64,000 nt of DNA, taken from positions 522,681 through 586,680 of the forward strand of contig MHCJ01000003.1 of NCBI GenBank assembly GCA_001816585.1. The letters are read 5' to 3'. A program made the translations under genes and the position numbers. Below, one piece after another: positions 8,808-64,000 of the stretch (its first letter is position 1; every line of letters starts with the position of its first letter). Origin of the DNA: Candidatus Chisholmbacteria bacterium RIFCSPHIGHO2_01_FULL_52_32 (GTDB taxonomy: Bacteria > Patescibacteriota > Microgenomatia > UBA1400 > Chisholmbacteraceae). A model generated the notes under the pieces. That model searched no databases and had not been told where the DNA came from. It saw only the letters and a program-made list of their open reading frames with translations.

Positions 8808-9566
8808 CTATTGTAGCTTTTTTTTGTCCCGTTTCGATAGCCTTCCTGTAACAAATCCGAAGAGAAGCAGGGTTGCCGCCCCGAGGAAGGCGATACTGGT
8901 CCATAGAGATTCCGATTGAAGCAGGCCGCGCTTTGGTGGAGAAGTGGTCGGTTGAACAGGAGAAGGCTTCATCTCGTTTTCCCGGTTCGCATTCTCGATT
9001 GAGGCTTTGGTCGCTTCGGTTGCCTCACCCCCCCCGTTCTCCAAGCCTCCTTCGTTTTTTCCCGTAGATTTGACGATGACAACGGAGATCGGTTCTGAAA
9101 CGATGAGCCGTTTGCCGCTCTCACGTTTCGGCGCCTCAAGGCTTGCCGTCGAAGTTATTGTTTGGGCTATTGCCGATTCTCGGACGGCGACTGTCATTGT
9201 CAACTTTCCCTCGCCGGTTGCTTCAAACGATTCGAGCTCGGGGATAAAATATTCGGGAAGACTCCCAAATTCACTCGAGAGCCAATTGGAAGGTTGCGGG
9301 TCGGCGGTAACGTACGTGAGCGGGGCTCTCCCTCCAAGGGCTGTGTTCAGCGTTATCCTCACGTTTTCCGCCATCCGAGGGCCTCTGTTCCCGAAGGTAA
9401 TGGTGTAGGAAAATTCGTCTTTCGGTCTGACCTCTTTTTGCGAAGCAACGATCGAAAGGTAAGGCTCCGAGTTTTCAGCTTGCAGAGGCTCTCCCGCTTG
9501 GACGCTTGCAAGGGATAGCCACCCGATAAGTACGAACGGAAGTGCTGTGAAAAATGTTCTCATCAC
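8808..9566 (-). CDS. secreted protein with a C-terminal TM anchor (DUF11-like beta-sandwich?)
   Basis: Signal peptide, C-terminal hydrophobic helix plus KRDKKK tail. Confidence 0.45.
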   Translation of the reverse strand: MMRTFFTALPFVLIGWLSLASVQAGEPLQAENSEPYLSIVASQKEVRPKDEFSYTITFGNRGPRMAENVRITLNTALGGRAPLTYVTADPQPSNWLSSEFGSLPEYFIPELESFEATGEGKLTMTVAVRESAIAQTITSTASLEAPKRESGKRLIVSEPISVVIVKSTGKNEGGLENGGGEATEATKASIENANRENEMKPSPVQPTTSPPKRGLLQSESLWTSIAFLGAATLLLFGFVTGRLSKRDKKKLQ

Positions 9567-9620
9567 AAAGGCAGGGTAATTTCTTCTCTTGAAAGGGTAA
9601 CGAGAAGATTCGCAAACTTG

Positions 9621-9944
9621 TTACTGGGCAACCTTGACCTTTGGCTCCTCAAGCTTTTGGTAGAACCACCAGGTTCCCTGGAGCAGAACGGTCCAGAGGA
9701 GGATATTGAGGAAGACTTTTTCCCACATGACTTGATTTTTATCCGGGGAAAGCCAATGGGTCAGTTTTCCGGTCGGCTCGATATCTCCGGCAAGTCGGTA
9801 CTCTACTTTGTACATCACCAGAGGCCAGCCGGCTACCTTTTGGAATTCCCCAAGATTCTGAGGAAAGAAAATAGAGGTATTCGTTAACACGATCGAGAAG
9901 AAAAGAAAGGCTGCAAACGGAGTTTTCGCAAACAGGTTATACAT
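9621..9944 (-). CDS. small membrane protein, hypothetical
   Basis: Two predicted TM helices; ORF only. Confidence 0.3.
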   Translation of the reverse strand: MYNLFAKTPFAAFLFFSIVLTNTSIFFPQNLGEFQKVAGWPLVMYKVEYRLAGDIEPTGKLTHWLSPDKNQVMWEKVFLNILLWTVLLQGTWWFYQKLEEPKVKVAQ

Positions 9945-9987
9945 CGTTATCCACCAAGTTCCATCTTACACGCTCTCCGAAAGGATT

Positions 9988-10899
9988 TCAATATTTTTTA
10001 TCTTCTGTACCCCAGCTTCTTAAGAATTGTATCCAGATTTCCGGGACGCTGCGAGAATAACCACCGGCACAGAGGGTGCAACAATGTTCAATGCCTTTGA
10101 GCTTTTCTCCAAGTTTTTCGTAGGTTTCAAGCTCCAGTTTGATATTTGCCAATGGATCCTCCTTAAACGTATCGGCACCCAGTACCAGAACAGTCAGGTC
10201 GGGATTGAACTTTTTGTGCAAACGGAGCCCCTCTTCAACTGCGGCGAGAAATTGGATTTCCCCTGCTCCCGGGTTAAGGATGATGTTCCGGTTGAATCCC
10301 TTTCCTTTTCCCTCCCCTTCCTGCTTTGGGAATCCCGTTCCCGGATACAGCGTGTGAGGATCCTGATGGATCGAAAGGGTGAAGACCGTCGGGTCATCGT
10401 AGAAGATTTCCTGCGTGCCTTGACCCGCATGTACATCAACGTCAAACACGAAGGCTGTTTTGATTTTCTTCTCTTTTTGAAGCTTTCGAATGGCGATGGC
10501 GTGATCGTTGAAGATGCAAAACCCGGAGGAATCGGATATGCCGGCATGGTGGAGTCCACCGAGGAGATTCATCACCCGTTTACCGCCCAGGGCTAGCTCA
10601 GTCGCAAGGATTGTTCCGCCCACTGAAAAATATGCTGCTTCCAAAACTCCCGCATCCACTGGTGTGTCGATGGAAAGTGCGCCACCACTTTGGGCAAGGT
10701 ATTTCACGCGATTCAGGTACTCTCCGGCGTGGGCAAGCAGGATGTCCTTATCTTTTGCTCTTTGGGGTTTATGAAGCTTGTAAGGAAGCGTTGTTTCTTT
10801 GAGTCGTTTCAGAAACACTTCTGCTCTTTCGGGCCAAAACGGATGACCGGGACCGAAACTATAGTCAAGGTATTTGGGGTGAAAGACAATATGAAGCAT
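9988..10899 (-). CDS. histone deacetylase/acetoin-utilisation (HDAC/AcuC) family deacetylase
   Basis: HHAGISDSSGFCIFND...DVDVHAGQGTQEIF: classic arginase/deacetylase-fold motifs. Confidence 0.8.
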   Translation of the reverse strand: MLHIVFHPKYLDYSFGPGHPFWPERAEVFLKRLKETTLPYKLHKPQRAKDKDILLAHAGEYLNRVKYLAQSGGALSIDTPVDAGVLEAAYFSVGGTILATELALGGKRVMNLLGGLHHAGISDSSGFCIFNDHAIAIRKLQKEKKIKTAFVFDVDVHAGQGTQEIFYDDPTVFTLSIHQDPHTLYPGTGFPKQEGEGKGKGFNRNIILNPGAGEIQFLAAVEEGLRLHKKFNPDLTVLVLGADTFKEDPLANIKLELETYEKLGEKLKGIEHCCTLCAGGYSRSVPEIWIQFLRSWGTEDKKY

Positions 10900-11008
10900 G
10901 AATTAAGAATTATGAATCATGAATTATGGACTGGGGATAAAATTTTCTTCTGGTTCCTTTGGATTGCTTTTACCATTATTCTTTATTCCTCATTCATTAT
11001 TCTTTTTC

Positions 11009-11491
11009 TCAGCTTTCCGGTGTTTCCCGTAAGCGCCGAGAAAATTCTTTTTTCGTCATGTAGCCTAAGAGAAAAAGCGGCGCGGCAACGTGGGCGATCC
11101 CGGCATCCTTCGGAATCCGGTTCAACGGAAACCACTTTATTTGATCAAATTTCTCCGGCTCAAGTATCTTTGGTATTCCTTTCTTCACTTTGCATAGGAA
11201 TGTCACACAATGCCAATGGATACGAGATTTCGGAAGGATTTGGTCCCAATGGCCGATGGGTTCTTCGATCGTGATCTCTATTCCCACTTCCTCCATTGTT
11301 TCTCTTTTCACCGCATCTTCCACCCGCTCGCCGAACTCCACTTCCCCACCCGGGATTGACCATAATCCTGCTGTCGTGCGGTGATTGGCAATCTTTTTGT
11401 TTCGCTTCATGAGCAGAATTTCGTTCTTCCCATTCAGAACGACCGCACCGCAACCTACTCCGATAAAATCCTTCCCCGTTATCATTTTCAT
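11009..11491 (-). CDS. NUDIX hydrolase
   Basis: Nudix box GGEVEFGERVEDAVKRETMEEVGIE. Confidence 0.8.
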   Translation of the reverse strand: MKMITGKDFIGVGCGAVVLNGKNEILLMKRNKKIANHRTTAGLWSIPGGEVEFGERVEDAVKRETMEEVGIEITIEEPIGHWDQILPKSRIHWHCVTFLCKVKKGIPKILEPEKFDQIKWFPLNRIPKDAGIAHVAAPLFLLGYMTKKEFSRRLRETPES

Positions 11492-12213
11492 AGCTGCTGT
11501 TGGAGCTTTCTTGGCAAGTTTCTTGATCCCTCCCGAAAAGTGAGACCGGACATTTTCTCTTTATATTTTTTAATAAACCTCACCACCTCTTCCGGTCTGC
11601 TTTTGCACAGTTCCCGCAGGGTCCAGCCGATCGCTTTGCGGATAAAGAAGCGTTCTTCTTTCGACCAGGTTTTCCCTTCCTCAAACATCGGGACTGCGAG
11701 CTTGAAAAAGAGTGCGTGGTCCCCTTTCCCTTTTCGGAAAAGCAATATTTGCGAGAGGAGAGAGGCCCGGCGGACCCAGAAGTTTTTGGATGTTGCCCAT
11801 TTCGAAAGGTAACGAATGGCCTTGGGGTCGTTTTCGATCATCGCTCCGACAAGATGGGCGGCAATCTCGTCCAAGTGATCCCAACCCGTGGCTTCTTTGA
11901 TCATTATTTCAATGAAGGGCATGTGGCTGACGGTAAGATGCTTTTTCTTTTCCGCGAGTATCATGATGGCGATCGTTTTTTCATCATGCCACTGCGAATC
12001 CCACAGTTTTTCGGCAAGTTTTTCGAGTTCAGGGATTTCGATTTTCGGATGGTCTTTGAACCACTGGTTGACGATTACCCTCCTTCTTGACATGTCCACA
12101 CCATAAAACTTCCACGGGCTTTTCAGGTACTTCTTTTCGCCTTCGGCGCGCTTCGGGTTGACTTGGCGCTTGAGTTCCTGTCTAAACCAAACTATTTCCT
12201 CAACGATGTTCAT
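11488..12213 (-). CDS. DNA alkylation repair protein (AlkD-like HEAT-repeat)
   Basis: Helical repeat protein resembling AlkC/AlkD; 4-nt overlaps with its neighbours (operon). Confidence 0.6.
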   Translation of the reverse strand: MNIVEEIVWFRQELKRQVNPKRAEGEKKYLKSPWKFYGVDMSRRRVIVNQWFKDHPKIEIPELEKLAEKLWDSQWHDEKTIAIMILAEKKKHLTVSHMPFIEIMIKEATGWDHLDEIAAHLVGAMIENDPKAIRYLSKWATSKNFWVRRASLLSQILLFRKGKGDHALFFKLAVPMFEEGKTWSKEERFFIRKAIGWTLRELCKSRPEEVVRFIKKYKEKMSGLTFREGSRNLPRKLQQQL

Positions 12214-12836: not shown

Positions 12837-12855
12837 GTACAGGTGCGACCTGTAC
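12837..12855. repeat. REP element GTACAGGTGCGACCTGTAC (perfect copy)
   Basis: 7-bp inverted arms GTACAGG/CCTGTAC around spacer TGCGA; lies in the 45-bp gap between the histidine phosphatase and Fic genes. Confidence 0.85.
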
Positions 12856-13927: not shown

Positions 13928-13944
13928 GTGCAGGTGCGACCTGC
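13928..13944. repeat. REP element, degenerate (TGCAGGTGCGACCTGC)
   Basis: Core GCAGGTGCGACCTGC, still palindromic; Fic/AlkA-like intergenic gap. Confidence 0.6.
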
Positions 13945-13962
13945 CCCCCAACCACTTTGATT

Positions 13963-14587: not shown

Positions 14588-14606
14588 TTGCAGGTCCGAC
14601 CTGTAC
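14588..14606. repeat. REP element variant (TTGCAGGTCCGACCTGTAC)
   Basis: Spacer variant TCCGA; intergenic. Confidence 0.65.
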
Positions 14607-15508: not shown

Positions 15509-16759
15509 CTACTTTCGAAAGTATTTCTTCCCTTTCAATTTCTCCGGCAGAAGGTCTTCACGGGAGTATTTCTCGTATCCGCGGCCATAGCCGAGATTTT
15601 TCATCAGCTTCGTAACGGGGTTGCGAAGATTCAAGGGAATGGGGAGATTGCCGTGTTTTTTTACGTCGTCGACTGCCCGGAAATACGCCTCATAGGCGGA
15701 GCGGTCTTTTTTTGCAGTGGCAAGGTAGACTACGCCATGGGCAAGGTTGATCGCACATTCCGGATAGCCGATGGTTTCGCAGGCGCGGAAGACTTCGTTG
15801 GCGACGACCAATGCTGTGGGTTGGGCCATCCCTATGTCTTCGGAGGCGAATATCACCATTCGGCGGGCGATGAACAGCGGGTCTTCGCCGGCATCGACCA
15901 TGCGGGCAAGGTAGTAGAGGGCGGCGTCGATGTTACTGGCTCTCATGCTTTTAATAAATGAGCTAATGGTGTTGTAGTGCTCTTCTCCCGCCTGGTCGTA
16001 GCGGAGGAATTTTGCCTGGAGTGCATTTTTGAGGTTCTCGACCGTGATCCGCCGATAGAGCCGTGCGGTGACTTCAAGGAGATTGAGGATTTGCCGCGCG
16101 TCGCCGTTTGAAAATCGGATGAGAAAATCCTGTGCGTTTTTAGGAACTTTGAGCCGTAGTTCTTTTGCCCCGCTCGTAACAATCCGGGCGAGTTCCTTCT
16201 CCGACAGCTCGTTGAGAACGAATACCTGACACCGGGACATGAGAGGCGGAATGACCTCGAAGCTCGGGTTCTCCGTGGTCGCGCCGATTAAAACGATCGT
16301 GCCGTCTTCAACGAAAGGCAGAAGGTAATCCTGTTGGGCTTTGTTGAAGCGGTGGATCTCATCTAAAAAAACTATGTTTTTTTTGGAAATGTTTGATGTT
16401 TGACCCGCCTGACGGCGAGGCAGGTGTTTAATGTTTAATTGCTGTTGTGCAGAACTCTTCACGCTTCTCACAATGTTTCTTATATCGTCTTTTCCGGCTG
16501 ATACGGCAGACAAGTGATGGAATTTTCCTCCGATTTCGCTTGCGATGATTCTTGCGAGCGTTGTCTTGCCGCTCCCCGGAGGTCCCCAGAAAATCATCGA
16601 ATGGATTTGTTTCTTTTCAATGGCCAGGCGAACTGGTTTCCCGGGACCGACTAGGTGAACCTGACCGATAAACTTTGAGAGCTTCTGGGGGCGGATACGA
16701 TCGGCAAGGGGTCTTTCCGAACTCCCGTTACCGGATAGCGGTTGGTTTTGTGACGTCAT
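15509..16759 (-). CDS. rarA: replication-associated recombination protein A (RarA/MgsA AAA+ ATPase)
   Basis: Walker [14 protein letters not shown], Walker B FLDEIHRF, MgsA C-terminal helical domain. Confidence 0.9.
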
Positions 16760-18113
16760 GTTTCAAAGCTTAATCGAATTAAACCCGAATATCAAGCAAC
16801 AACTCATGAAGTGGCGTCTTTTCCCTAAATTGATTATGATGTGCTCTGTGAACAAAACCCACATTATTTTTGTTTCCATCCTCACGTTCCTGCTCCTTTC
16901 TTACAAACTCACCTGGCCATTTTGGGGACATCACGAGTTCAATGGGGTGTATTACGGCATGATCGCGAAGAATTATCTGCGGTATGGGCTTTGGGCAACG
17001 AAGGGCGGACAGGTAAATAATCTCTATCCTGCTCTCCCTTCCGAGTGGAGTTATCACGTGAACCATCCGGCGACCTATCCGCTTCTGTTGGCTTTATCAT
17101 TCCGCATGTTTGGCGTTACGGAGGTAACCGCAAGACTGGTTTCCATTATCGCTTCAGTGCTCGGGGTCGTGTTTTTGGCAAAGCTCTTAAGCGCCCTTTA
17201 TAAGGATCATGTTGCTTGGCTTGCCGCTGTGGTTGTCATTTTTTCCCCGCTTTTTCTCTACTTCGGATCGCTGCCGGTGTTTGAACCGATTCTCTTTCCC
17301 GTCGTCACCCTTGGGCTTTGGCGCTACTTTATAACGCGAAGGATTAAATTCCCCGGGTCGGTTATCATCGTCTCCTTTGCCGCATCGCTGATTGACTGGC
17401 CGGGGTTTTGGCTTCCGGTTTCTCTAATCGTCTATGAGTGGCTGACCCGAAAGAGGAAGAAGCTCATTCTTTTTCTTGTGGCAACTACCCTTCTCGCGTT
17501 CTTCATTATTATTGCGCATCAAGCCATTGTTACCGGCAGTGCACTTGAAAACCTCAAAGGGGTTTTTGAATATCGCTTCAGTGTCACAAAACAACCCTAC
17601 ACTCCGATCGCTTGGGTACGGCTCCTGGCTGCCCGCACCCGGGCTTTTTGGGGGCTTCCGATCATTGTTGCCTCCGGCATTGGATATCTTTTGGCTTTCC
17701 GCGGCACGCGAAAGCTTGGGGGTTTTCTCTCCGCAATCCTTGCTTTAGGGCTTGCCCATATCCTGGTTTTCCGCAACATCACTTGGTATCACGACTATAT
17801 GCTCTATCACACTATTCCTTTCGTCGGTGCCTCCCTCGGAAGCTTACTGAGCTTTGTTTTTCGAAAAACCCGGTCTCGAATCGCGGTTTATATGTTGGTT
17901 GCAATTCTCATCGGATTGACCATCACCACTACCAATGCGTTTTTTATTGCTTTAGCTTCGATGAATGGTTATAAGGACTGTACCGAAATGGCCTACGCTG
18001 CCCGAACCAACCCGACGCCGCTCACCTTTCGACTTTCTCAGGAAAAGGCCAAAGAATGTCCGCCGTTTGTTGGGTTTTACGCAGAAAAGCCGTTCGGAAT
18101 CAAAGCTTATTAG
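16758..18113 (+). CDS. GT-C fold membrane glycosyltransferase (ArnT/PMT family 39-like)
   Basis: About 12 TM helices with a conserved N-terminal loop, typical of 4-amino-arabinose/mannosyl transferases. Confidence 0.6.
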   Translation: MFQSLIELNPNIKQQLMKWRLFPKLIMMCSVNKTHIIFVSILTFLLLSYKLTWPFWGHHEFNGVYYGMIAKNYLRYGLWATKGGQVNNLYPALPSEWSYHVNHPATYPLLLALSFRMFGVTEVTARLVSIIASVLGVVFLAKLLSALYKDHVAWLAAVVVIFSPLFLYFGSLPVFEPILFPVVTLGLWRYFITRRIKFPGSVIIVSFAASLIDWPGFWLPVSLIVYEWLTRKRKKLILFLVATTLLAFFIIIAHQAIVTGSALENLKGVFEYRFSVTKQPYTPIAWVRLLAARTRAFWGLPIIVASGIGYLLAFRGTRKLGGFLSAILALGLAHILVFRNITWYHDYMLYHTIPFVGASLGSLLSFVFRKTRSRIAVYMLVAILIGLTITTTNAFFIALASMNGYKDCTEMAYAARTNPTPLTFRLSQEKAKECPPFVGFYAEKPFGIKAY

Positions 18114-31830: not shown

Positions 31831-31849
31831 GTACAGGTGCGACCTGTAC
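31831..31849. repeat. REP element (perfect) preceded by a GGTAGGGATTTCCCTACC hairpin
   Basis: Seen directly; intergenic gap 31749-31850. Confidence 0.85.
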
Positions 31850-32844: not shown

Positions 32845-32860
32845 GTTCAGGTCGCACCCG
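32845..32860. repeat. REP remnant (CAGGTCGCACCCGC, inverted orientation)
   Basis: Partial match to the REP core in inverted orientation. Confidence 0.4.
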
Positions 32861-33351
32861 CAAGAATATCAAGCATCCCGGAGAACTTGAGGAAAATTAC
32901 GAACTTATTTCAAAACTCCGTAGATACCCTGGAACTTCGATCCAACTTTCTCAAGTGATTATGCGTTTTTTGAGACGACCTAACTTTCCTAAAGAATTGT
33001 TCTTGGAAGTGCGGCCGCACTTTAAATAACAATATGTATCGCAGACATCTCTATGAGTCCGTTTCAAAACTCTATTTCCTGTAAGTTTTAACGCAGTGAT
33101 CCGATTTGATTTTTTTAAGTTGGGTTTGGACCTCATTTTTCCCACATACGTATACAAAGATGCAGTTGACAGTATGTGCTACGCGTTTGGTACACTGCAA
33201 CTAATCTTCTTTTTGTTGGCCGCCAACGGAAACAAAGAAGGCACTGCCCCAGAATCAATCCCTGTCCTTTTTTAGTGAAGTCTGCCCAGACTGCTTAGCA
33301 TGAAACGAATTCTGCTCAGCCTGCTTTTCTTTGATACCGTTGGAGGGACTT

Positions 33352-38540: not shown

Positions 38541-38608
38541 GTACAGGTGCGACCTGTACGTGTGAATATACATGGCTATCTGACCTCCTGTACAGGTGCG
38601 ACCTGTAC
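38541..38608. repeat. direct REP doublet (38541-38559 and 38590-38608, both perfect)
   Basis: CCTCCGTACAGGTGCGACCTGTACGTGTG...CCTCCTGTACAGGTGCGACCTGTACATGGCG, in the convergent gap between the LTD gene and sortase 2. Confidence 0.85.
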
Positions 38609-39173: not shown

Positions 39174-39332
39174 GACTTCCTTTATAAAAAGGACTCCTAG
39201 TGGGAATCCTTGCGGCCTATACTATCCTTTCTCCCTTCGTTGTCAAGTCTGTACAGGTGCGACCTGTACGCGCAGTTTTTCCTGGCATTCATTCTCTCTG
39301 TACAGGTCGCACCTGTACGGTACAATGGGCAT

Positions 39333-39992
39333 ATGCCCGCAAAGTACACAGTCAAGATGTATGTTGAAAACGGTTATTATCATCTCCTCAACAGAGGGGT
39401 GGATAAACGATCTATTTTCTTCGATAAGAAAGATTCCGTCACCTTTCTGTCTCTTCTTAAGCGCTACCTTACTAATCCTGACCTTCTCCCACCTGAACTT
39501 CAGTTTCTCCGCCCGTCGCGCAGGTCGCACCTGTACGAGCAGATAACGCTCGTTGCCTACTGCCTTATGCCAAACCACTTTCACCTACTTGTAAGGCAGA
39601 AATCCAGGAACGCCATCACTGAATTCGCCCGTTGCCTCATGAACTCCTATGTCCGGCACTTTAATGACCGCCACGAGCGAGTAGGTCCTCTCTTCCAAGG
39701 AAGAATCAAGGGGATACTGGTGGATAATGATTCCTACCTCCTCCATTTGACACGATATATCCACCGCAATCCGGAAGAGTTTTGGGAACGTTCTCTTCGA
39801 GATTACCCGTATTCAAGCTATGCTGAGTATCTTGGTCTTCGAAGTACCTCTTGGATTCATCCGGAAGCGATTCTTGCCTATTTCAGATCACCCCTAAATA
39901 AAAGTCTGCATGATTATTTTTCCTACGAAAGCTTCGTCGAGGAATCAAAAGACGATTCGTCTGAGATCCTTAAGGAGATCACCCTCGAATAG
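39333..39992 (+). CDS. REP-associated tyrosine transposase (RAYT; IS200/IS605-like Y1 HuH transposase, transposase_17 type)
   Basis: YYHLLNRG...FFD (N-terminal motif), HuH motif AYCLMPNHFHLL, catalytic Tyr region YLLHLTRYIHRNP, DYPYSSY. Start at Met42 of the track ORF because the upstream in-frame residues are REP sequence. Flanked by REP doublets. Confidence 0.8.
   Translation: MPAKYTVKMYVENGYYHLLNRGVDKRSIFFDKKDSVTFLSLLKRYLTNPDLLPPELQFLRPSRRSHLYEQITLVAYCLMPNHFHLLVRQKSRNAITEFARCLMNSYVRHFNDRHERVGPLFQGRIKGILVDNDSYLLHLTRYIHRNPEEFWERSLRDYPYSSYAEYLGLRSTSWIHPEAILAYFRSPLNKSLHDYFSYESFVEESKDDSSEILKEITLE
39520..39536. repeat. REP-like copy inside the rayT coding sequence (GCAGGTCGCACCTGTAC, inverted orientation, 17 of 19 positions)
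   Basis: In frame it encodes RRSHLYE within a variable region of the RAYT, just upstream of the HuH motif. Confidence 0.6.
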
Positions 39993-40067
39993 CACCTCCG
40001 TACAGGTGCGACCTGTACGGTGTGTACGGGTGCGACCTGTACATGCGTGTTCTTTTGCTACCACTTG

Positions 40068-40583
40068 TTAGGGGACGAGGAGCTTCTTGACGGGGCTGGT
40101 TTTGGAGGACTTTCCACCGATATCGAATCCTCCGCTTCCCGGTTCATAGTCAGAAATGTAGATACCACTGCTATCTTTGTCCCAGCAATGAACCAATAGG
40201 CTTGAGAAGGAACTGTAATATGTACCAATTTCTTGGTTTACATCTGACCGGAAGATTTTTATCCATTTGGTTCTCATTCTTTGGCCATTTTCTATATCAA
40301 TATAATAATTCTTATCTGGAGAGTAAACGGGAAAGGGCCAATCCAGTGATGTTTGAGGGTAGATTTGTCTTGTCTCAGCACATACTTCTTTCAAAGAAAC
40401 TCCTAGCTCGGAAAGATTTGCCCACTTGAGTGTTGATCTGGGAGTATTACTCCACCACATTACTAGCACTAGAGCTGTAAGTATGAAACCTAAACTTAAA
40501 ATCTTCCATCTGTTTCTCCGTATTAGTGACGTTATATTTTTTCGTGACATGGAATGTGAGGTAAATATTCTATGGCCTTTCAA
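40068..40583 (-). CDS. small membrane-anchored protein, paralog 1 (partner of the lipase-like gene)
   Basis: N-terminal TM helix; C-terminus ...DYEPGSGGFDIGGKSSKTSPVKKLLVP is almost identical at the nucleotide level to the 3' end of 61128..61628. Confidence 0.5.
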   Translation of the reverse strand: MKGHRIFTSHSMSRKNITSLIRRNRWKILSLGFILTALVLVMWWSNTPRSTLKWANLSELGVSLKEVCAETRQIYPQTSLDWPFPVYSPDKNYYIDIENGQRMRTKWIKIFRSDVNQEIGTYYSSFSSLLVHCWDKDSSGIYISDYEPGSGGFDIGGKSSKTSPVKKLLVP

Positions 40584-40613
40584 GATGATGTTATCAGCTC
40601 GAGATATTCCAGG

Positions 40614-43600
40614 TCAATCCCCTACAATAAAGATTACATTAGCATCAAGCTCATGACCAAATTCAGATACACCTATCAGGTAAGTCTTGCCAGACTTAAA
40701 GTTGTAATCGCGAAGATGAAGATTAACGATGTAGTGTTGTTTGTCTGCGTCAATTCGTATGACATCGCTTTTCCCATGCAGACCTGGATTTTCCATTGAA
40801 AGGAATGCAATGGCCGAAGAGGGATTGCTCGGATCAACGACCCAAACCTGCACACTCTCATCTTCAGCAAATCTTCCTTCAGCATCACGAATGGTGAACT
40901 TGATGGGAAGGGTCGCATTGCGTGAAACTCTCGGCGGTTTATCCGGATCATTTAACGGTGAGTCCCATTGGATACTTAATGGAGCCGTGGGAAGACTAGC
41001 TCGATTATATGTAGCCGTATGCTCATGAATGTCTCCTGGTGAGGTGGTCCCTGTGAATTCTGCGAAGGTAAGAATGCCTGCGTCACTAAGCGCTTGTACT
41101 AGTACCATGTAATTTCCTTCCTCTACTCCTAGTAACTTGATTGTGTATTCTCCCTCCAAGGGATCCGGGATGAAGATGAAGTCCGGCTCATTAACCTCAA
41201 TTGATCTACTGAACAATGTTCCCGGAATTTCTGATAGTTCCTCACCTGTATTAAAATCAAGGCCCACTCGTCTTCCCAGAGGATCGGTTATCTGAATTTC
41301 CACCGGCGAGAGAATAATGAACCCTAAAGCAGCCTCATGCAAATTGATGCCCGGATCAACAAAGCCGGCGTTAAAAAATGGTCGTGTCTTCGTTAAGAGC
41401 TCTACAATGCTTTGTTGGAGTTGGGTCGGCAAGTGTCCATGCTCAATAATCGATGTATTATCTGCACTCAGATAATACCGGGGCACGAGACGAGTATCGA
41501 TGAAGCTTAGATCAGCGCTCGCTGTTGGTACGGTTTTATCTCCTCTTCCCAGTGGACGAAAATCTCTGCCTTTTAATACCTTTCCGTTCTGCCATATGCC
41601 ATAAATATCATCTAGAAGGTTGCGCCCCACGACTTTGTACAATTTGTCAGTATCCTCAAGTGGACGTTCATTCTCATAGCGATCTCCGACTACAGAAATC
41701 ACATTGTTTCCTCCTAACCGATTAATGAGAACTACTATATTTTCATTGAGTGAGGTCAAGAATTCATTTATCTGATGCCCGAATGGGTAAATCGAGTTTA
41801 AATTATCTGCGGCGACAAGATACCCTCCGGGATCATCCCTCAAATACTCATCCACTGGAAAAAGTTCTCGGATACTCGGCACCTTATCTTTAATGTATTG
41901 GTAGAGATCAGTCTTCGTGGTGAAGCAGAGCTTTGTGAGGTCGGTACAGTACCCTTTCTTCCTCGCTAGAGCGCGGAGTAACCATTCCGCAAGAATCTTT
42001 CCTTTATCGCCGACGATATCATCGAAGAAATCAAATTCCAGACCTTCTGCCGCCAGGTACGCTTTCGGTGCACCAAGGTGGGGTGTTCCTAGCGTGATCA
42101 GCCGATGGACATCTCCCGTGTATGAATCGCCTTGGACGTAGGCGCGGGACACAAGCCCGCCAAGACTGTGCCCAACAAGATCCACGGAAGAGGAGTCCAC
42201 GTACTCCGACACTGATGCTTTTGGAAGCATTGAGCTTCGTATTGCAATGCCTAACTCGCCTCCTGACTTGGAAATGTGCTGTCTCCAGTCATACGGGAAT
42301 GTGAATAGGCTTTGATCAACTTCGTACCCAGCAAATTGTAATTCTTCGAGAAGATTGTTATATGTACCGAGGATAGGATCTATAGTCCATTGTCCAAAAG
42401 CATTTTTCATCGAACCCAGTAGGCCGGGAATAACTACCACCGGATGGATTCGGGCAGTTGGGATAATCATGGTTTCTTGATCGACGCCGAGGATTTCTCC
42501 GTTTGAATCATTAAACATTTTCGCGGTAACGAGAATGGTTTGCCCCGACATCGGCTGAATCCACATCGGCCACATTATTGGGAGGGACTGACCGGGATTT
42601 AACCTTAATGCTCGTCTTAGTATCGCTGGTGGCTCGAGGAGCGTTCCATTATCTTCAAAGAGCAGGCGACTGGGATTTGAGAACGAGACTTCGAGATCCC
42701 CCACCATAATGGCAGATCCCGTATTTGACACACTCACTCGTACTTCCGTGGGATTCTGTGCATACCAACCATCTTCATTGAGCGTGAGTTCGTGCGGTAC
42801 AGCGACATCGACGATTGGACCAGAACCTAATGGTGCGGTGGTGGAGAAGAAAATATCCCAGCTGGTACCTTCGATTTCCTCCATCCAAACAGCATAGGCG
42901 TAGCCCTGTCCATCCATGGCCACATCGGGGGCAAGTTTGCGACGTGTCAGGTCAGGAGTAACGAGAGTGTTCGGACTCCAGGTTCCATCTGCCTCCCTAT
43001 ATGTAGAGTAGATCTCATAGGAATCAGGGAGAACAGTGATGAGGTTATCCGCCCAGACCACAACGGCCTCCCCGGCAGGAGTGACGGCAATTGCCGAAAA
43101 ATCACGGAAGCCATTTTGGGCGTCGCTGACTTGACTGATCGGATCCCATGCTCCACTCGCGTTCCGCTTGCGGAAGGCAATCTCCCAGTCCGGAGTGGCT
43201 TGTGTCCAAACCACATAGGAATTCGCGGAGGCGTCAATTCCGACATCGGGGTTTTGGCCGAAAGCGGTGGAGACGGGTTCGTTCGCTCCCCAAGAATCTC
43301 CTTGTGGACGATGGGAGAAATAGATCTGCTGGAGTCTATTGCGCAGATCGGTCCAAACTACAGCCGCATTCCCGCCCTGATCGACAGTAAGGGAGGGCCC
43401 GCGTGTACCGCTCGTGATCACGGACCCCGGGACATCGTTGACTAGTGTATCAGTTCCCCAGTTTCCTCCATGGGGTCGGTAGTCGAAAAAGAGGTCTTGA
43501 AAATCAGTAGAATCGGGAGGATTCCGCCGATCATACCAAGCAGCATAGGCATTTCCCGCAGGATCAACGGCAATATCCGCATAGGGCTGGGCTTGGGCAT

Positions 43601-44036
43601 CGGGATCGGTTACCTGTTCCCGAACGAGGGTTTCCGTGGCCCAGCCTCCCCCGGCAGGAAGAAAGACAAACCAGAGTTTCCCAAAGCTTTCCCAAAGCAC
43701 ATAGGCATTCCCGCCTGCGTCCACGGCGATACTCGGTTCGTCGCCGACCGTTAAGGCATCGTTCACCTGTACTTCCGATCCCCAATTCCCTCCCGCAGGA
43801 CGGTAATCCACGTAGATGTCAAAGTGATTACTATTTCGCTTATCCATCCAGACCGCGTAGGCGTTGCCCGCCCCATCAACCGTAACTGAAATTGCCGGAT
43901 ACCACTGCTCGGCAGGTCCAAGGTCATCATTCACTCGGACCTTGGGGCTCCAAACAGGGTCGGCGGCATGGGCAGAGGGAGTAAAAAAGAAAAAAGGGAG
44001 GAAAAAGAGAAGTGTGAAGATGCATCGGCGGATCAT
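40614..44036 (-). CDS. large secreted protein: 7-bladed beta-propeller (xGNAYxVW repeats) + PGAP1-like alpha/beta-hydrolase (lipase/esterase, GHSLGG) + C-terminal beta-sandwich domains; paralog 1
   Basis: Signal peptide; repeats DGAGNAYAVWMDKRN x7; VVVIPGLLGS...LVGHSLGGLVSRAY...LITLGTPHLGAPKA. Confidence 0.7.
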   Translation of the reverse strand: MIRRCIFTLLFFLPFFFFTPSAHAADPVWSPKVRVNDDLGPAEQWYPAISVTVDGAGNAYAVWMDKRNSNHFDIYVDYRPAGGNWGSEVQVNDALTVGDEPSIAVDAGGNAYVLWESFGKLWFVFLPAGGGWATETLVREQVTDPDAQAQPYADIAVDPAGNAYAAWYDRRNPPDSTDFQDLFFDYRPHGGNWGTDTLVNDVPGSVITSGTRGPSLTVDQGGNAAVVWTDLRNRLQQIYFSHRPQGDSWGANEPVSTAFGQNPDVGIDASANSYVVWTQATPDWEIAFRKRNASGAWDPISQVSDAQNGFRDFSAIAVTPAGEAVVVWADNLITVLPDSYEIYSTYREADGTWSPNTLVTPDLTRRKLAPDVAMDGQGYAYAVWMEEIEGTSWDIFFSTTAPLGSGPIVDVAVPHELTLNEDGWYAQNPTEVRVSVSNTGSAIMVGDLEVSFSNPSRLLFEDNGTLLEPPAILRRALRLNPGQSLPIMWPMWIQPMSGQTILVTAKMFNDSNGEILGVDQETMIIPTARIHPVVVIPGLLGSMKNAFGQWTIDPILGTYNNLLEELQFAGYEVDQSLFTFPYDWRQHISKSGGELGIAIRSSMLPKASVSEYVDSSSVDLVGHSLGGLVSRAYVQGDSYTGDVHRLITLGTPHLGAPKAYLAAEGLEFDFFDDIVGDKGKILAEWLLRALARKKGYCTDLTKLCFTTKTDLYQYIKDKVPSIRELFPVDEYLRDDPGGYLVAADNLNSIYPFGHQINEFLTSLNENIVVLINRLGGNNVISVVGDRYENERPLEDTDKLYKVVGRNLLDDIYGIWQNGKVLKGRDFRPLGRGDKTVPTASADLSFIDTRLVPRYYLSADNTSIIEHGHLPTQLQQSIVELLTKTRPFFNAGFVDPGINLHEAALGFIILSPVEIQITDPLGRRVGLDFNTGEELSEIPGTLFSRSIEVNEPDFIFIPDPLEGEYTIKLLGVEEGNYMVLVQALSDAGILTFAEFTGTTSPGDIHEHTATYNRASLPTAPLSIQWDSPLNDPDKPPRVSRNATLPIKFTIRDAEGRFAEDESVQVWVVDPSNPSSAIAFLSMENPGLHGKSDVIRIDADKQHYIVNLHLRDYNFKSGKTYLIGVSEFGHELDANVIFIVGD

Positions 44037-44123: not shown

Positions 44124-44142
44124 ATACAGGTGCGACCTGTAC
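44124..44142. repeat. REP element (ATACAGGTGCGACCTGTAC; extended palindrome CATATATACAGG...CCTGTACATGG)
   Basis: Seen directly, in the 245-bp gap between the lipase-like gene start and the PIG-L gene. Confidence 0.75.
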
Positions 44143-51323: not shown

Positions 51324-51340
51324 GTACAGGTGCGACCTGC
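51324..51340. repeat. REP element, 3'-truncated (GTACAGGTGCGACCTGC), directly followed by an 'AAGTTAAAAG' type-A repeat
   Basis: Lies just after the aminotransferase stop codon. Confidence 0.7.
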
Positions 51341-51372
51341 AATAATTTCAGTTAAAAGTTTAAAGTGAAAAG

Positions 51373-52005
51373 TTAAAAGTTATCCACCCTCTCAGCAAAG
51401 ACCAGGAGGCGTTTGAGGGCGGTACCGATAGGGGTGCAGGTTTGGAGAACTAGTTGGTTTCGCTTTTGCTCCGTTAAGTACTTCACTTCGTTTGGCCAAA
51501 CTGTTTTTTTCTCGCGGACACGGTAGACAATATCCTTTCCCTTATACGTCACAATGATTTGATCACCCTCTTTTACCCTTCCGAGGCGGAAGAAGGCGGT
51601 GTTGTAGCGGGTCATGCGCCACGGGAGATCGGAAGAGTGGGCAAAAAGATACATCAAACCGGATTGGTTGGGAACGGCCGAGCCGGTGGCATGAGCAACC
51701 CCGTTTTTCAGCGCTTCTACGTAGAGCCTTTGGTTCCAGGGATCTACGTTTTCGACCACAGGGCTGTTGATTCCGATCGTCGGGATACGGATATTGAAAA
51801 CTTCTGAAGTTGCAGTTTGTGTGATGACATTTGTTGTTCTATATGTATACTCTTCCTTGATGATAGGGAAAAATATAATAAGCGCAAAAACCATAGACAA
51901 CCCCATGAGAACGTTGCCTATGGTTGAAAGAGTTTGAGGGGTTCTTTTGCTGGTCTTTCCCATGATAGAAGGGTGAATTGTAGAAGAAGTGAAGCGAAAA
52001 AGCAA
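51373..52005 (-). CDS. sortase family transpeptidase (sortase 3; paralog of 23482..24093)
   Basis: TM helix; ...NGVAHATGSAVPNQSGLMYLFAHSS...LVLQTCTP. Confidence 0.65.
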   Translation of the reverse strand: MLFRFTSSTIHPSIMGKTSKRTPQTLSTIGNVLMGLSMVFALIIFFPIIKEEYTYRTTNVITQTATSEVFNIRIPTIGINSPVVENVDPWNQRLYVEALKNGVAHATGSAVPNQSGLMYLFAHSSDLPWRMTRYNTAFFRLGRVKEGDQIIVTYKGKDIVYRVREKKTVWPNEVKYLTEQKRNQLVLQTCTPIGTALKRLLVFAERVDNF

Positions 52006-55433: not shown

Positions 55434-55506
55434 GGTTATGAATAAAGAATTATGAATGATGAATTATGAATCAACTTTTAACTTTTCACTTTACACTTTT
55501 AATTTG
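55434..55506. repeat. composite intergenic repeat: type B (GAATTATGAATGATGAATTATGAATC) + type A (inverted)
   Basis: Type B also occurs at 10897-10929, 58661-58682 and 58720-58756. Confidence 0.6.
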
Positions 55507-55574
55507 ATATTCCCTTGGGCTGTGGGGCCCCGCAAATAGCTTCGTCAGCGGGGCTCCCACAAACCCATAAGGAT

Positions 55575-60909: not shown

Positions 60910-61086
60910 GTACAGGTCCGACCTGTACAGCGCATATTATATGGCTTTTTGCTCTTACGTACAGGTGCGACCTGTATATCGGCGCCCACACAGCTTATCT
61001 CAAACGTCTCTATCTATGCGACGATCGAAAGCAGTTAACGACATATCCAGGCTAAGCGTCCGGGCATGTACGGGTGCGACCTGTAC
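60910..61086. repeat. cluster of three REP copies (60910-60928 spacer variant TCCGA; 60959-60977; 61068-61086 GTACGGG variant)
   Basis: Between the S8 protease start and the stop of the paralog-2 small gene. Confidence 0.8.
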
Positions 61087-61127: not shown

Positions 61128-61628
61128 CTATGGAACAAGGAGTTTTTTGACGGGGCTGGTTTTGGATGACTTTCCACCGATAACGAAGATACTTCCGCTT
61201 CCCGGTTCATAGTCAGCTACGTATATTCCGGAGCTGTCCTCTGCCCAACAATAGATGACAAAGTCAGAGTAGTCACTAAAATATGTTCCAGTATATGTGT
61301 TTGTATTTATATTGAAAAGCTTAATGGCTTTACTTTGGCCGAAGTAAGCATTTTCCAAATCTATAGAGTACTGCTTATTTGGAGAGAAAAGCGGGAAGAG
61401 TTGGTCAGGTCCGGGATATACAGCATATCGAGCCTTGCAAATTTCTTCGACAACCGTCGGCGCCTTCTCGTTTTGGTTTTCCCAGATAAGCGTGGATGTT
61501 GGAAAAAAGATTCGGAAGCGAATGATTACGCTAATACTTAACAACACAACAATCGCCGAGATGATAGTTATCACTACAATCATAACGCTCTTTTTTCCTA
61601 TGAAATTTGCTGAGTTCTTAATGACCAT
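61128..61628 (-). CDS. small membrane-anchored protein, paralog 2
   Basis: Same architecture as 40068..40583 and the same C-terminal ...DYEPGSGSIFVIGGKSSKTSPVKKLLVP. Confidence 0.5.
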   Translation of the reverse strand: MVIKNSANFIGKKSVMIVVITIISAIVVLLSISVIIRFRIFFPTSTLIWENQNEKAPTVVEEICKARYAVYPGPDQLFPLFSPNKQYSIDLENAYFGQSKAIKLFNINTNTYTGTYFSDYSDFVIYCWAEDSSGIYVADYEPGSGSIFVIGGKSSKTSPVKKLLVP

Positions 61629-61778
61629 AGGATAGATGTCTCCGCATTATATTCGTGATTAAACTCTATCAAATTTGTTGTTTCTAGACTAGGGTAAGAT
61701 TCCTCGCTATGGGTTTGAAAAAATCTAACTCTCCGGTTAATTTCCTTATCTTTTGACACTAACTAATTCTTTCACTCT

Positions 61779-64000
61779 TTAGTCACTCTTCGATTGAACA
61801 CTGATTCCCCGCCCCTCGAATTCTTGACCCAATAGACCAACTTCAACGACATATGTCTTCCCAGTCTCAAAGTTAAAATCGGGAAGATGAAGATTAACAA
61901 TATAGTGTTGTTCGGTCGCGTCTATTCGTATGACATCGCTTTTCCCTTGCAAACTTGTTTCTTCCATTGAAAAGGCTGCGACGACCGAAGAAGGATCGTT
62001 TGAATCTATGACCCAGACCTGCACACTCTTATCTTCGACAAATCCTCCCTCGGCATCACGAATTGTGAACTTGATGGGAAGGGTGGATTTTAGCGTAACT
62101 TTACGGGGTTCATCCGGATTATTCAACGGTGGGTACCATTGGATATTCAGCGGAGCTATGGGCAGACTAGCTCGATTATAGACAGCTGTATGTTCATGAG
62201 TACCTCCTGGTGAAGTGGCCCCTGTGAATTCTACGATGGTTAGATAACCTTCCTCACTGAATGCTTGTACTTGCACCGTGTAATTCCCATAATCTATTCC
62301 TTGTAAGTTGATCGTGTATGCTCCTTCCAAGGGTTCCGGGATGAGAATAAAGTCCGGCTCATTAGCCTCGTTTGAACGGCTAAATAATGCCCCTGGAATC
62401 TCTGGGAGTTCCTCACCCGTATTAAAATCAAGACCCGTTCGTCTTCCCAGTGGATCGGTTATCTGAATTTCCACCGGCGACAAATTGATGAACCCTAAAG
62501 CTGCTTCGTGCAAATTGATGCCCGGATCGACAAAGCCGGCGTTAAAAAATGGACGGGAGATCGTTAAGTGCTCTAGTACGCTCTGCTGAAGTTGGGAGGG
62601 CATGTGTTGATGTGTGATGATTGAGCCATCATCACTCTGAGTTTTGTGCTCTGCCTGCATTCGCTCATCAAATAGACTGAGGTCAGCACTTGACAATGGA
62701 ACTGTTTCGTCACCAGGGCCTATCTCTCGAAATTCTCTTCCCTGCTTTACTTTCCCGTTAGTCCATAATCTCAATTGAGATTCTATGAAGTTACGTTCTA
62801 CTACCCTATAGAATGAGGGCGTATCTCTCTGTGGTCGATCTCCTATAAACGAAATCACATTGTTCCCTCCTAGCCGATCAATGAGAACTTCAATATTTTC
62901 ATTTAGTGAGGTCAAAAACTCATTCATCTGATGACCGAATGGGTAAATCGTTGTCGGTTCATTAGTGGAAATAAGGTACCCCCCAGGATCATTCTCTAAA
63001 TACTCATCCACTGGAAAAAGTTCCCGGATGCTCGACACCTTGTCTTCAATGTATCTGTAGAGATCTGTTTTAGTAGTTAAGCAAATTTTTATTAAGTCGG
63101 TGCAGTACCCATTTTTCCGGGCAAGACTGCGGATTAAAACATCTGCTAATATTTTCCCTACCTCGCCAGTATCATCGAAAAAATCAAACTCTAAGCCTTC
63201 TGCTACTAAATACGCTTTCGGTGCACCAAGGTGAGGTGTTCCAAGCGTAATTAACCGATGCACGTTACCCGTGTATGTGTCGCTCTGGACGTATGCCCGA
63301 GATACCAGCCCTCCGAGACTATGCCCAACAAGATCTACCGAGGAGGAGTTGATATATTCCTTCGATGCGGCTACCGGAAGTATTTTCGTTTTGATTGAAA
63401 CACCAAGCTCGTTTCCTGACTCTGAAATATGTTGCCGCCAATCGTATGGGAATGTGAATAGACTTGTATCTTTTTCATAACCAGCAAATTGTAGTTCTTC
63501 AAGGAGATTGTCATATGTACCAGCGACGGGATCTATTGTCCACTGTCCAAAAGCATTTTTCATTGAACCCAGAAGGCCGGGAATGACTACCACCGGGTGG
63601 ATTTGGGCGGTTGGGACGATCATGCTGTCTTCATCTTCGGCGATGACTTCTCCGCTTGAATCATTAAACAGTTTCGCGGTAACGAGAATAGTTTGTCCTG
63701 ACATCGGCTGAATCCACATCGGCCAGACTAAAGGCAGAGATTGGCCGGGTTGCAAGTTTATTGATCGCCGTAATATAGCCGGCGGCTCGATGAGGGTGTC
63801 ATTATATTCAAAGAGCAAGCGATCGGGATTTGAAAACGAAACAACGATAGTACCCAGCGCAGAAACTGATCCCGTATTTGACACATTGACCCGCACCTCA
63901 GCCGGATTCTGCGCATACCAGCCGCTGTCATTCAGCGTGAGTTCGTGCGGGACATCGACATCAACGACGATTGGAGCGGAGGCCGCGGTGGTGGAGAAGA
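61779..64000 (-). CDS. beta-propeller/PGAP1-like alpha/beta-hydrolase protein, paralog 2; N-terminus (propeller) lies beyond the window end
   Basis: The track ORF starts at a GTG at 63896, but the upstream frame stays open to the window end and aligns to paralog 1 (..VDVDVPHELTLNDSGWYAQNPAEVRVNVSNTG..). Also VVVIPGLLGS...GHSLGG...TPHLGAPKA. Confidence 0.7.
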   Translation of the reverse strand, partial: FSTTAASAPIVVDVDVPHELTLNDSGWYAQNPAEVRVNVSNTGSVSALGTIVVSFSNPDRLLFEYNDTLIEPPAILRRSINLQPGQSLPLVWPMWIQPMSGQTILVTAKLFNDSSGEVIAEDEDSMIVPTAQIHPVVVIPGLLGSMKNAFGQWTIDPVAGTYDNLLEELQFAGYEKDTSLFTFPYDWRQHISESGNELGVSIKTKILPVAASKEYINSSSVDLVGHSLGGLVSRAYVQSDTYTGNVHRLITLGTPHLGAPKAYLVAEGLEFDFFDDTGEVGKILADVLIRSLARKNGYCTDLIKICLTTKTDLYRYIEDKVSSIRELFPVDEYLENDPGGYLISTNEPTTIYPFGHQMNEFLTSLNENIEVLIDRLGGNNVISFIGDRPQRDTPSFYRVVERNFIESQLRLWTNGKVKQGREFREIGPGDETVPLSSADLSLFDERMQAEHKTQSDDGSIITHQHMPSQLQQSVLEHLTISRPFFNAGFVDPGINLHEAALGFINLSPVEIQITDPLGRRTGLDFNTGEELPEIPGALFSRSNEANEPDFILIPEPLEGAYTINLQGIDYGNYTVQVQAFSEEGYLTIVEFTGATSPGGTHEHTAVYNRASLPIAPLNIQWYPPLNNPDEPRKVTLKSTLPIKFTIRDAEGGFVEDKSVQVWVIDSNDPSSVVAAFSMEETSLQGKSDVIRIDATEQHYIVNLHLPDFNFETGKTYVVEVGLLGQEFEGRGISVQSKSD

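Follow-up and report, generated by a model that had tools for sequence, protein, structure and literature searches.

A 64,000-nucleotide stretch of the genome of Candidatus Chisholmbacteria bacterium RIFCSPHIGHO2_01_FULL_52_32 (the whole of it is referred to here as the window) contains a gene for a protein related to tyrosine transposases, which we call rayT-like, and 17 copies of a short palindrome. We are fairly confident that gene and palindromes together represent a REPtron-type system of a bacterium of the candidate phyla radiation (CPR), that is, an HuH/Tyr (Y1) DNA endonuclease-ligase of the RAYT/TnpAREP type (RAYT, REP-associated tyrosine transposase), single and inherited vertically, and its cognate repetitive extragenic palindromes (REPs). 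The REP/RAYT interpretation is supported in kind by what we observe: the anatomy and enrichment of the palindromes, the fold and catalytic motifs of the protein, the synteny of related loci, and the co-variation of a central base triplet across promoter, coding and flanking copies. Across the family, the REP is a hairpin of 19-21 nt whose AGGT...ACCT stem is conserved and whose 3-nt centre varies by lineage. The host had been surmised to be CPR-like in a preliminary description made from the DNA sequence, and Candidatus Chisholmbacteria do belong to the CPR/Microgenomates.

The 19-mer GTACAGGTGCGACCTGTAC and its near variants occur 17 times in the window, at 11 intergenic loci and one intragenic site. 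Seven copies are perfect (starting at 12837, 31831, 38541, 38590, 39251, 39300 and 40000, with 39300 in minus orientation), five have one mismatch (40024, 44124, 60910, 60959 and 61068), two have two (39518 and 51324), two have three (13928 and 14588), and the copy at 32845 is degenerate, with four. The preliminary description had listed about 17 sites with no more than two mismatches. All 17 were found, two of them at corrected positions (39518 and 40024 instead of 39520 and 40025), and three copies exceed two mismatches. Dinucleotide-preserving shuffles of the window give an expectation of 0.00 for matches with up to two or up to three mismatches, so a chance origin of the set can be rejected. 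The 11-nt core of the element, AGGTNNNACCT, was observed 14 times in the window against 0.58 expected. A CRISPR-like array was also rejected, as the spacing is irregular and cas genes are absent; Rfam gave no family match anywhere in the window.

Each REP consists of a 7-bp stem, GTACAGG/CCTGTAC, enclosing TGCGA. The outer T and A of this centre can pair as well, so that only the central triplet (GCG or CGC) carries direction. In nearly all copies the dyad is lengthened by the flanking bases, a pyrimidine at -1 and a purine at +1. As single-stranded DNA, a single REP is predicted to fold into a 9-bp stem with a 3-nt loop (-8.8 kcal/mol, z -4.6). In being a short, stable and mostly extragenic stem-loop, the window REP resembles canonical REPs.

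The most informative copy is the one at 39518-39536 (minus strand, 17/19 match), which lies in frame within the rayT-like coding sequence, a position on which the preliminary description was silent even though it had listed the copy. It occupies codons 64-68, AGG TCG CAC CTG TAC, and is translated as R-S-H-L-Y. We compared the window with nine related CPR (Microgenomates) loci; L021, a near-identical second contig of L020 encoding the same protein, was not counted. All examined loci contain AGGT-NNN-ACCT palindromes with a locus-specific triplet (GCG, TTA, CCG, CCA or GGC). The individual triplets, with the identity of each protein to that of the window in brackets, are GCG in L029 (85%; the flanking copies are a GGGT stem variant), CGG in L028 (66%), CGC in L027 (65%), CCG/CGG in L024 (57%), L018 (56%) and L025 (48%), GGC/GCC in L026 (56%), TTA/TAA in L016 (55%), and CCA/TGG in L020 (54%), which also has a dispersed second family, CGA/TCG. 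There are 17 AGGT-NNN-ACCT copies in L020, where 0.16 would be expected per 20 kb. The palindromes take up to four conserved positions relative to the gene: 28-36 nt upstream of the start codon, codons 50-68, codons 146-158, and at or just past the stop codon. Not all loci have intact copies at all four, and the site at codons 146-158 is absent from the Chisholmbacteria clade.

The gene-proximal copies of a locus have one triplet, or its complement, throughout, which means that the copies evolve in concert. The proteins of L016 and L026 are 79% identical, yet all three central bases differ at each homologous site (TTA vs GGC). The changes compensate each other in the intragenic pair, which reads GAG GTT AAA CCT...AGG TTT AAC CTC in L016 and GAG GTG CCA CCT...AGG TGG CAC CTC in L026, and the encoded peptides track the triplet: VKP/RFNL, VPP/RWHL, VRP/RSDL and VQP/RSNL. 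The relationship also allowed two predictions from protein sequences alone. The RSHLY peptide of protein P0006 predicted a palindrome of the CGC type, and L027 has ACAGGTCGCACCcGTAC upstream and GTACAGGTCGCACCcGAC downstream of the gene. The RSDL peptide of protein P0005 predicted the CGG type, and L028 has CCAGGTCGGACCTGG on both sides. At the second coding site, a [QKE]VxP...RxxL pair is found in 32 of 112 homologues. In 28 of the 32, or 12 of 16 distinct types, the two halves could be encoded by inverted copies of one AGGT-NNN-ACCT element; when partners were permuted among the 16 types, this held for a mean of 4.0, and none of 5000 permutations reached 12. The intragenic pairs of relatives are mostly inverted. 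In a structural model of the protein (see below), the first coding site would lie in the loop of lowest confidence, at about residues 58-70 (the confidence score pLDDT dips at 51-70), before the strand formed by residues 71-78 and upstream of the HuH motif. The second is predicted to be part of the linker that joins the Tyr helix to the C-terminal YPYSSY domain.

The rayT-like gene (39333-39992, plus strand) encodes 219 amino acids, with the HuH motif H82-F-H84, the catalytic tyrosine in Y142-IHRNP, and a C-terminal YPYSSY tail domain. The RAYT signature motifs YYHLLNRG, AYCLMPNHFHLL and YIHRNP, named in the preliminary description, are all found in the translation. That the longer open reading frame from 39210 has an artefactual start, as also stated there, is borne out: its 41 extra codons, giving a false total of 260 amino acids, are translated REPs. 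All homologues begin at the MPAK sequence that corresponds to ATG 39333. NHFH and YIHRNP are conserved in 64 homologues, with H82, H84, Y142 and N146 invariant. The invariance of the HuH histidines and the tyrosine argues for retained catalysis. An AlphaFold model calculated from the 64 homologues has a pLDDT of 86.7 and a pTM of 0.85. Its best Foldseek match in the Protein Data Bank (PDB) is 4ER8, Escherichia coli TnpAREP with a bound REP hairpin (E 4e-7); the TnpA proteins of ISDra2 and IS608 give weaker matches (about 3e-4 to 1e-3). Y---NP is the signature of class 2 (TnpAREP), whereas Y---Q is that of IS200 (PMC6006769). The rayT-like protein has Y---NP, and combines the HuH motif and the catalytic tyrosine of the RAYT/TnpAREP class.

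The gene is bracketed by its own palindromes, an inverted pair on the 5' side and a direct pair on the 3' side, as had been described; palindromes with cognate triplets likewise bracket the gene at the nine related loci. The upstream pair (39251-39318) is a REPIN-like doublet of two perfect copies (39251-39269, plus; 39300-39318, minus) separated by a 30-nt spacer. The downstream pair (40000-40018 and 40024-40042, both plus) begins 8 nt past the stop codon and is predicted to form two hairpins. A consensus scan found a sigma-70-like promoter match, TGTACA-16 nt-TACAAT (39299-39326, plus strand), that overlaps the proximal upstream REP. A distance of 6 nt separates its -10 hexamer from the ATG, so that the mRNA would be leaderless or nearly so. 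By equal criteria, sigma-70-like matches with spacers of 16-18 nt, which are consensus matches and not evidence of function, are found in nine of the ten loci. The distance from the -10 hexamer to the start codon is 3-8 nt in the nine matched loci and 4-8 nt in eight of them. The left arm of the REP is adjoined or overlapped by the -35 hexamer in seven of the nine: five with a perfect TTGACA, the window with TGTACA, and L027 with TGCACA. The two others are L018 and L028, whose matching -35 hexamer is contained within the REP. It is reasonable to infer that the transcript may be leaderless and the gene autoregulated through the promoter REP.

A protein identical to the rayT-like one is encoded on a 1,158,385-bp contig of GCA_001816955.1. 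More than 4000 relatives of the rayT-like protein are present in the database at E < 1e-5, and those with names come from Levybacteria, Curtissbacteria, Microgenomates and the 'Patescibacteria group'. In L016, L020, L024, L025 and L026 the gene occupies one syntenic site, between a prepilin peptidase gene and pilin/PilC/PilB genes, which points to vertical inheritance. In these five divergent Microgenomates the gene is at about 9000-11600 of the locus, inside the type IV pilus cluster and on the opposite strand. The RAYT-like protein of L029 is 85% identical to that of the window and the neighbouring LTD proteins are 39% identical, so the former is far better conserved than its surroundings. 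L016 has a second Y1 paralogue, about 40% identical (16617-17294, in the region 16537-17360), with a direct repeat of its own, about 40 nt long, on either side; the repeat contains AGGT-GTCCT-ACCT and the palindrome CCACCT-CTA-AGGTGG. The distinct repeat makes this a separate gene-repeat pair in the same genome.

As the preliminary description had stated, nearly all REPs of the window are intergenic: 16 of the 17 lie between long open reading frames, the exception being the copy in the rayT-like gene. The 11 intergenic loci comprise four convergent, three divergent and four co-directional gaps. From left to right, there are a single perfect REP at 12837-12855 (plus) in a 45-bp gap between co-directional genes; two decayed intergenic copies with three mismatches each at 13928-13946 and 14588-14606 (both plus, the latter with the loop CCG); a single perfect REP at 31831-31849 (plus) in a divergent region; the degenerate copy at 32845-32863 (minus) between convergent genes; a direct doublet at 38541-38608 (plus) where the 3' ends of an LTD-domain gene and a sortase gene converge; the copies in and around the rayT-like gene; a REP at 44124-44142 (plus) in a divergent region; a REP at 51324-51342 (plus), 5 nt past a stop codon and between convergent genes; and a cluster at 60910-61086 (plus) made up of 60910, with the loop CCG, 60959, 49 bp further on, and 61068, a GTACGGG variant. 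Three doublets have an exact period of 49 bp (38541/38590, 39251/39300 and 60910/60959), and their spacers can be weakly aligned around a TGGC core, which suggests a composite unit of 68 nt. The REPIN-like pairing claimed in the preliminary description applies to 39251/39300, the only inverted one of the three; the other two are direct. As single-stranded DNA, the inverted doublet is predicted to fold as one hairpin of 23 bp (-24 kcal/mol, z -6.9). The GCG loop is on the plus strand in 14 of the 17 copies. Replication-strand bias is known for single-strand transposases, and the excess of one orientation could be a bias of this kind. The majority of genes flanking REPs are on the minus strand, and the cumulative GC skew climbs along the window.

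Some features of the genomic context should be mentioned. The window contains a duplicated two-gene module, at 40068-44036 and at 61128-64000, the latter running into the right-hand extension of the window (L023 6410-10501). The module encodes a lipase-like (PGAP1/LCAT) protein of 1140 or 1146 amino acids and a small protein of 171 or 166 amino acids. Identity is 44% between the small proteins and, in one stretch of the large genes, 81% at the DNA level; the only close paralogue of the 1140-residue protein is the one at the right edge of the window. In both modules a REP cluster (40000/40024 and 60910-61086) is located directly past the 3' end of the small gene. In L029 (841-3292), the rayT-like gene and two downstream REPs directly adjoin a TsaD-like/VanZ/LTD gene trio, and the upstream neighbour differs from that in the window. 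The same trio is found about 25 kb away in the window genome, past the second lipase-like module (L023 4689-6390), so the segment between the REP clusters looks inserted or rearranged. An AT-rich short tandem motif, ATGAATTATGAATC, occurs with its variants in intergenic regions at 10907, 55461, 58669 and 58729, in both orientations, and may be a promoter or operator element. Another motif, AAGTTAAAAGTTAAAAGTGAAAAGTTAAAAGTT, is found inside a trmD-like gene (989-1030) and in intergenic regions at 51365-51400, adjoining the REP at 51324, and at 55473-55510.

How would such a system most likely work? The RAYT-like enzyme, the product of a domesticated single-strand DNA transposase gene, would bind a REP once it has formed an extruded hairpin in single-stranded DNA, such as the lagging-strand template, cleave beside the hairpin using Tyr142 and a metal ion held by the H82/H84 HuH motif, and rejoin the ends. 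Single REPs and 68-nt REP-spacer-REP doublets could thereby be copied or moved into nearby intergenic gaps. The same activity may overwrite existing copies, which would keep the copies at one locus identical; such REP-for-REP replacement would resemble gene conversion, made site-specific and acting on single-stranded DNA. The promoter of the gene has a REP in its spacer, so the protein, by binding to it, would probably restrain its own production. Two loops or linkers at the protein surface would tolerate the in-frame copies. We propose only tentatively, as a possibility we think more doubtful than not, that throughout the CPR the enzyme keeps rewriting its own hairpins, with promoter, intragenic and flanking copies held identical by RAYT-catalysed replacement, so that the self-regulated gene is both source and target.

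Several points weigh against reading the locus as a REP/RAYT system. Catalysis on REPs, recognition of hairpins on single-stranded DNA, autoregulation and homogenisation are what we infer. The system is not canonical, either in its hairpins or in the score of its protein. According to the literature, canonical REPs carry a GT[AG]G tetranucleotide at the 5' foot of the hairpin; the preliminary description had raised a conserved GTAG-like 5' tetranucleotide as a prospect, and there is none in the window copies or at the relatives' loci. In the window both sides of the foot read GTAC, in relatives CC, ACA, CG or ACAA, and only AGGT/ACCT is invariant. Since these REPs are without the guide tetranucleotide, recognition rules derived from E. 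coli may not apply to them. The NCBIfam RAYT equivalog model REP_Tyr_transpos (NF047646) scores the protein at 38.1 bits, below its cutoff of 80, so the protein is not an E. coli-type orthologue. The RAYT identity claimed in the preliminary description thus holds for the Y1_Tnp domain, the Y---NP motif and the TnpAREP fold, and fails at this model. Single-sequence and profile searches of PDB sequences returned, within the family, IS200-type transposases only (E 0.8 and 0.003). They did not return 4er8, and the top raw phmmer matches were unrelated repeat and proteasome-activator proteins. For the choice between RAYT and IS200 these searches are uninformative, and structure comparison is needed. 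At the first coding site of L028, L020, L024 and L025, the R-x-D-L peptide is kept though the DNA palindrome has decayed, which means that part of the conservation is at the protein level.

The distribution of the REPs is a further point on this side. The 17 copies are spread over 48 kb (12.8-61.1 kb of the window), and there are none in the 27.5 kb outside this span, namely 1-12.8 kb and 61.1-64 kb of the window and 11.8 kb of extensions (L022, 4.2 kb to the left, and L023, 7.6 kb to the right). A metagenome scan for the exact 19-mer returned eight contigs, three of them from the host organism and all three inside the window. The remaining contigs are chance matches and not REPs; in L011 (2035-2185, 31% GC), where the exact 19-mer occurs twice, its translation, GTGATCT, belongs to a Cys-rich tandem repeat in a large protein of the secreted type, a coding coincidence. 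Among 185,579 representative genomes, a set that does not include the source genome, the exact 19-mer gave three single chance matches in unrelated high- or low-GC taxa. These hints favour REPs that are concentrated around the gene rather than genome-wide. L020, L024 and L025 have cognate copies up to 10 kb from the gene, several of them in frame in host genes. The in-frame REPs in host genes of relatives lie in those for a hydrolase, a DegT aminotransferase, FemAB, NusB, the C-terminal tail of ribosomal protein S16 and a pilus-cluster protein (L025 17623 and 18679; L024 20342; L020 568 and 1893-1920; L016 4833-4860 and 5845), adding peptides such as TRSDLV and GEVQPPERLNL.

Could the palindromes simply be regulatory or structural sites? 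The Y1 protein would then be only a sequence-specific binder (an autorepressor or a nucleoid factor), the palindromes would be an operator in the rayT promoter and terminators or stabilisers of mRNA ends elsewhere, and the copies would have spread through ordinary duplication and selection rather than transposition. We consider this unlikely, although a number of observations would fit it. A REP is in the promoter spacer at nine of the ten loci, and eight of the 11 intergenic REP loci of the window adjoin the 3' end of a gene. A T-run comes after some of the REPs, as in intrinsic terminators: at the terminator-like site 40020-40046, the second downstream REP is followed by GTGTTCTTTT. Many REP variants are perfect dyad-symmetric 15-mers, as is typical of operators for dimers, and palindromes of 15 bp such as ACAGGTCSGACCTGT could equally be double-stranded operators, a point that also counts against a hairpin-based system. 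So does the finding that in L016, L018 and L026 cognate copies are present only at the gene, which would suit a purely regulatory role. Deep synteny and strong conservation mean that the gene serves the host. On the other side, the HuH histidines and the tyrosine are invariant in 64 homologues, which argues for retained catalysis. It is also hard to see, without a copying mechanism, how 17 near-identical copies came to lie at 11 unrelated intergenic loci, or how the three 49-bp doublets and the in-frame copies in unrelated host genes of relatives arose. Finally, the whole set of copies switches its triplet together between proteins that are 79% identical.

A conventional autonomous IS200/IS605 insertion sequence (IS), with the flanking hairpins as its ends and the other palindromes as solo ends or elements resembling miniature inverted-repeat transposable elements (MITEs), is very improbable and largely refuted. 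The Pfam match to Y1_Tnp, an IS200-like family (31.5 bits, cutoff 23), the IS200-type PDB sequence matches and the hairpins on both sides of the gene would speak for it. Against it are the Tyr motif, which is Y---NP (class 2) and not Y---Q, the length of the protein (219 residues with a C-terminal domain), and the best structural match, which is to TnpAREP and not to the TnpA of IS608 or ISDra2. The neighbours of the rayT-like gene are a sortase gene and a small hypothetical gene, and neither TnpB nor IS ends were found at the locus; a tblastn search of 76 kb (the window and the two extensions) found no second rayT copy. In this the preliminary description, which set the gene apart from IS200/IS605 elements with TnpB and IS ends, is supported. 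The same chromosomal position in five divergent species is a further argument against a mobile element of this kind. That gene and palindromes are unrelated neighbours, the repeats being kept by another factor such as a restriction-modification or recombination system recognising GTAC or AGGT, is more improbable still: GTAC is a common restriction site and REPs occur at rearrangement junctions near the duplicated modules, but ten independent loci have the palindromes at the same positions relative to the gene, with lineage-specific triplets common to promoter, coding and 3' copies, the L016 paralogue has its own distinct flanking repeat, and the permutation test gave 0/5000.

As a REP/RAYT system, the locus can be compared with several known ones. 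Among the closest is E. coli TnpAREP/RAYT with its REP/BIME elements (BIME, bacterial interspersed mosaic element; PDB 4ER8; Quentin subclass 2.2, Bertels Group 2), with which it shares the HuH motif and a single Tyr in Y---NP. As in the E. coli REPtron, a gene that is single-copy (here in the 76 kb searched) is bracketed by its own palindromes, which are also dispersed in intergenic regions, and each lineage has its cognate REP. Unlike E. coli TnpAREP, to which its sequence identity is 13-14%, the CPR protein scores below the NCBIfam equivalog cutoff. Unlike the E. coli REP, the window REP is a short perfect palindrome without a bulge or GTAG guide and with an invariant AGGT/ACCT. Further differences from the E. 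coli system are the copies in the promoter spacer and in frame within the gene, the 48-kb span of the known copies, and the host, a CPR bacterium with a genome of about 1 Mb.

Judged by published motifs alone, the rayT-like family would fit TnpAY1 subclass 2.1 (PMC6006769), equivalent to Bertels Group 1/TIRYTs: it shares NH[YF]H, FQ for WQ, Y[IV]HLNP (here YIHLNP/YIHRNP), the SS tail and a length of about 220-240 amino acids. For subclass 2.1, REP-like sequences were reported to be absent from the vicinity of the gene (PMC6006769); in contrast, every CPR locus examined has cognate palindromes. In-frame REP insertion was called unique to subclass 2.4 (PMC6006769), which is Bertels Group 4 from Cyanobacteria and Bacteroidetes. 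The CPR genes resemble that subclass in having in-frame REPs inside the tnpAREP gene and in their 'double-foot' palindromes. They differ from it in their motifs (WQ and YIxNNP in subclass 2.4) and in the sites of insertion, which are between the HuH and Tyr motifs in subclass 2.4 and before HuH and after Tyr in the CPR. The Rickettsia palindromic elements (RPEs) and intragenic REPs (Di Nocera et al. 2013, PMC3733652) are likewise short palindromes that stand in frame in functional genes, in a genome of small size. RPEs exceed the CPR elements (11-21 nt) in length, and no Y1 gene goes with them, whereas the CPR elements are tied to a RAYT-like gene. With the IS200/IS605 TnpA proteins (IS608, ISDra2), the CPR protein shares the HuH/Y1 core fold and the hairpin-flanked gene; it differs in that the gene is without TnpB, not multicopy in the 76 kb searched and syntenic in position, and in that the protein has Y---NP and an extra C-terminal domain.

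To our knowledge, RAYT/REP systems have been studied almost exclusively in Proteobacteria and Cyanobacteria. The full-text literature searched contained no paper linking REP/RAYT with CPR/Patescibacteria, the one exception being a KEGG annotation mentioned in passing for an archaeon. The statement in the preliminary description that REPs are essentially undescribed in such a lineage agrees with this, and a REP/RAYT-type system has apparently not been described in the CPR so far. Non-IS Y1 genes have been found mainly in large genomes (PMC6006769); here is a family of more than 4000 database members in CPR genomes of about 1 Mb, often at one conserved type IV pilus site. Its distinctive features are the minimal AGGT-N3-ACCT REP, the promoter REP, and the in-frame REP/REPIN copies, whose evolution is concerted with that of the flanking copies. 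The family also poses an annotation problem, as translated REPs extend or decorate CPR open reading frames; examples are the false start in the window, which gives 260 residues, and the RSDL/VRP peptides that relatives carry in host genes. Because these REPs are unusually small and their 11-nt core varies at only three bases, cognate recognition can be read directly from the sequence. The coupled changes in promoter, coding and flanking copies make it possible to test, within the system itself, whether REP and RAYT co-evolve and whether the gene may regulate itself. If the enzyme does rewrite its own hairpins, the coupled triplet switches would be a natural record of changes in REP-RAYT specificity, and these minimal genomes would be the simplest known system for testing RAYT function.

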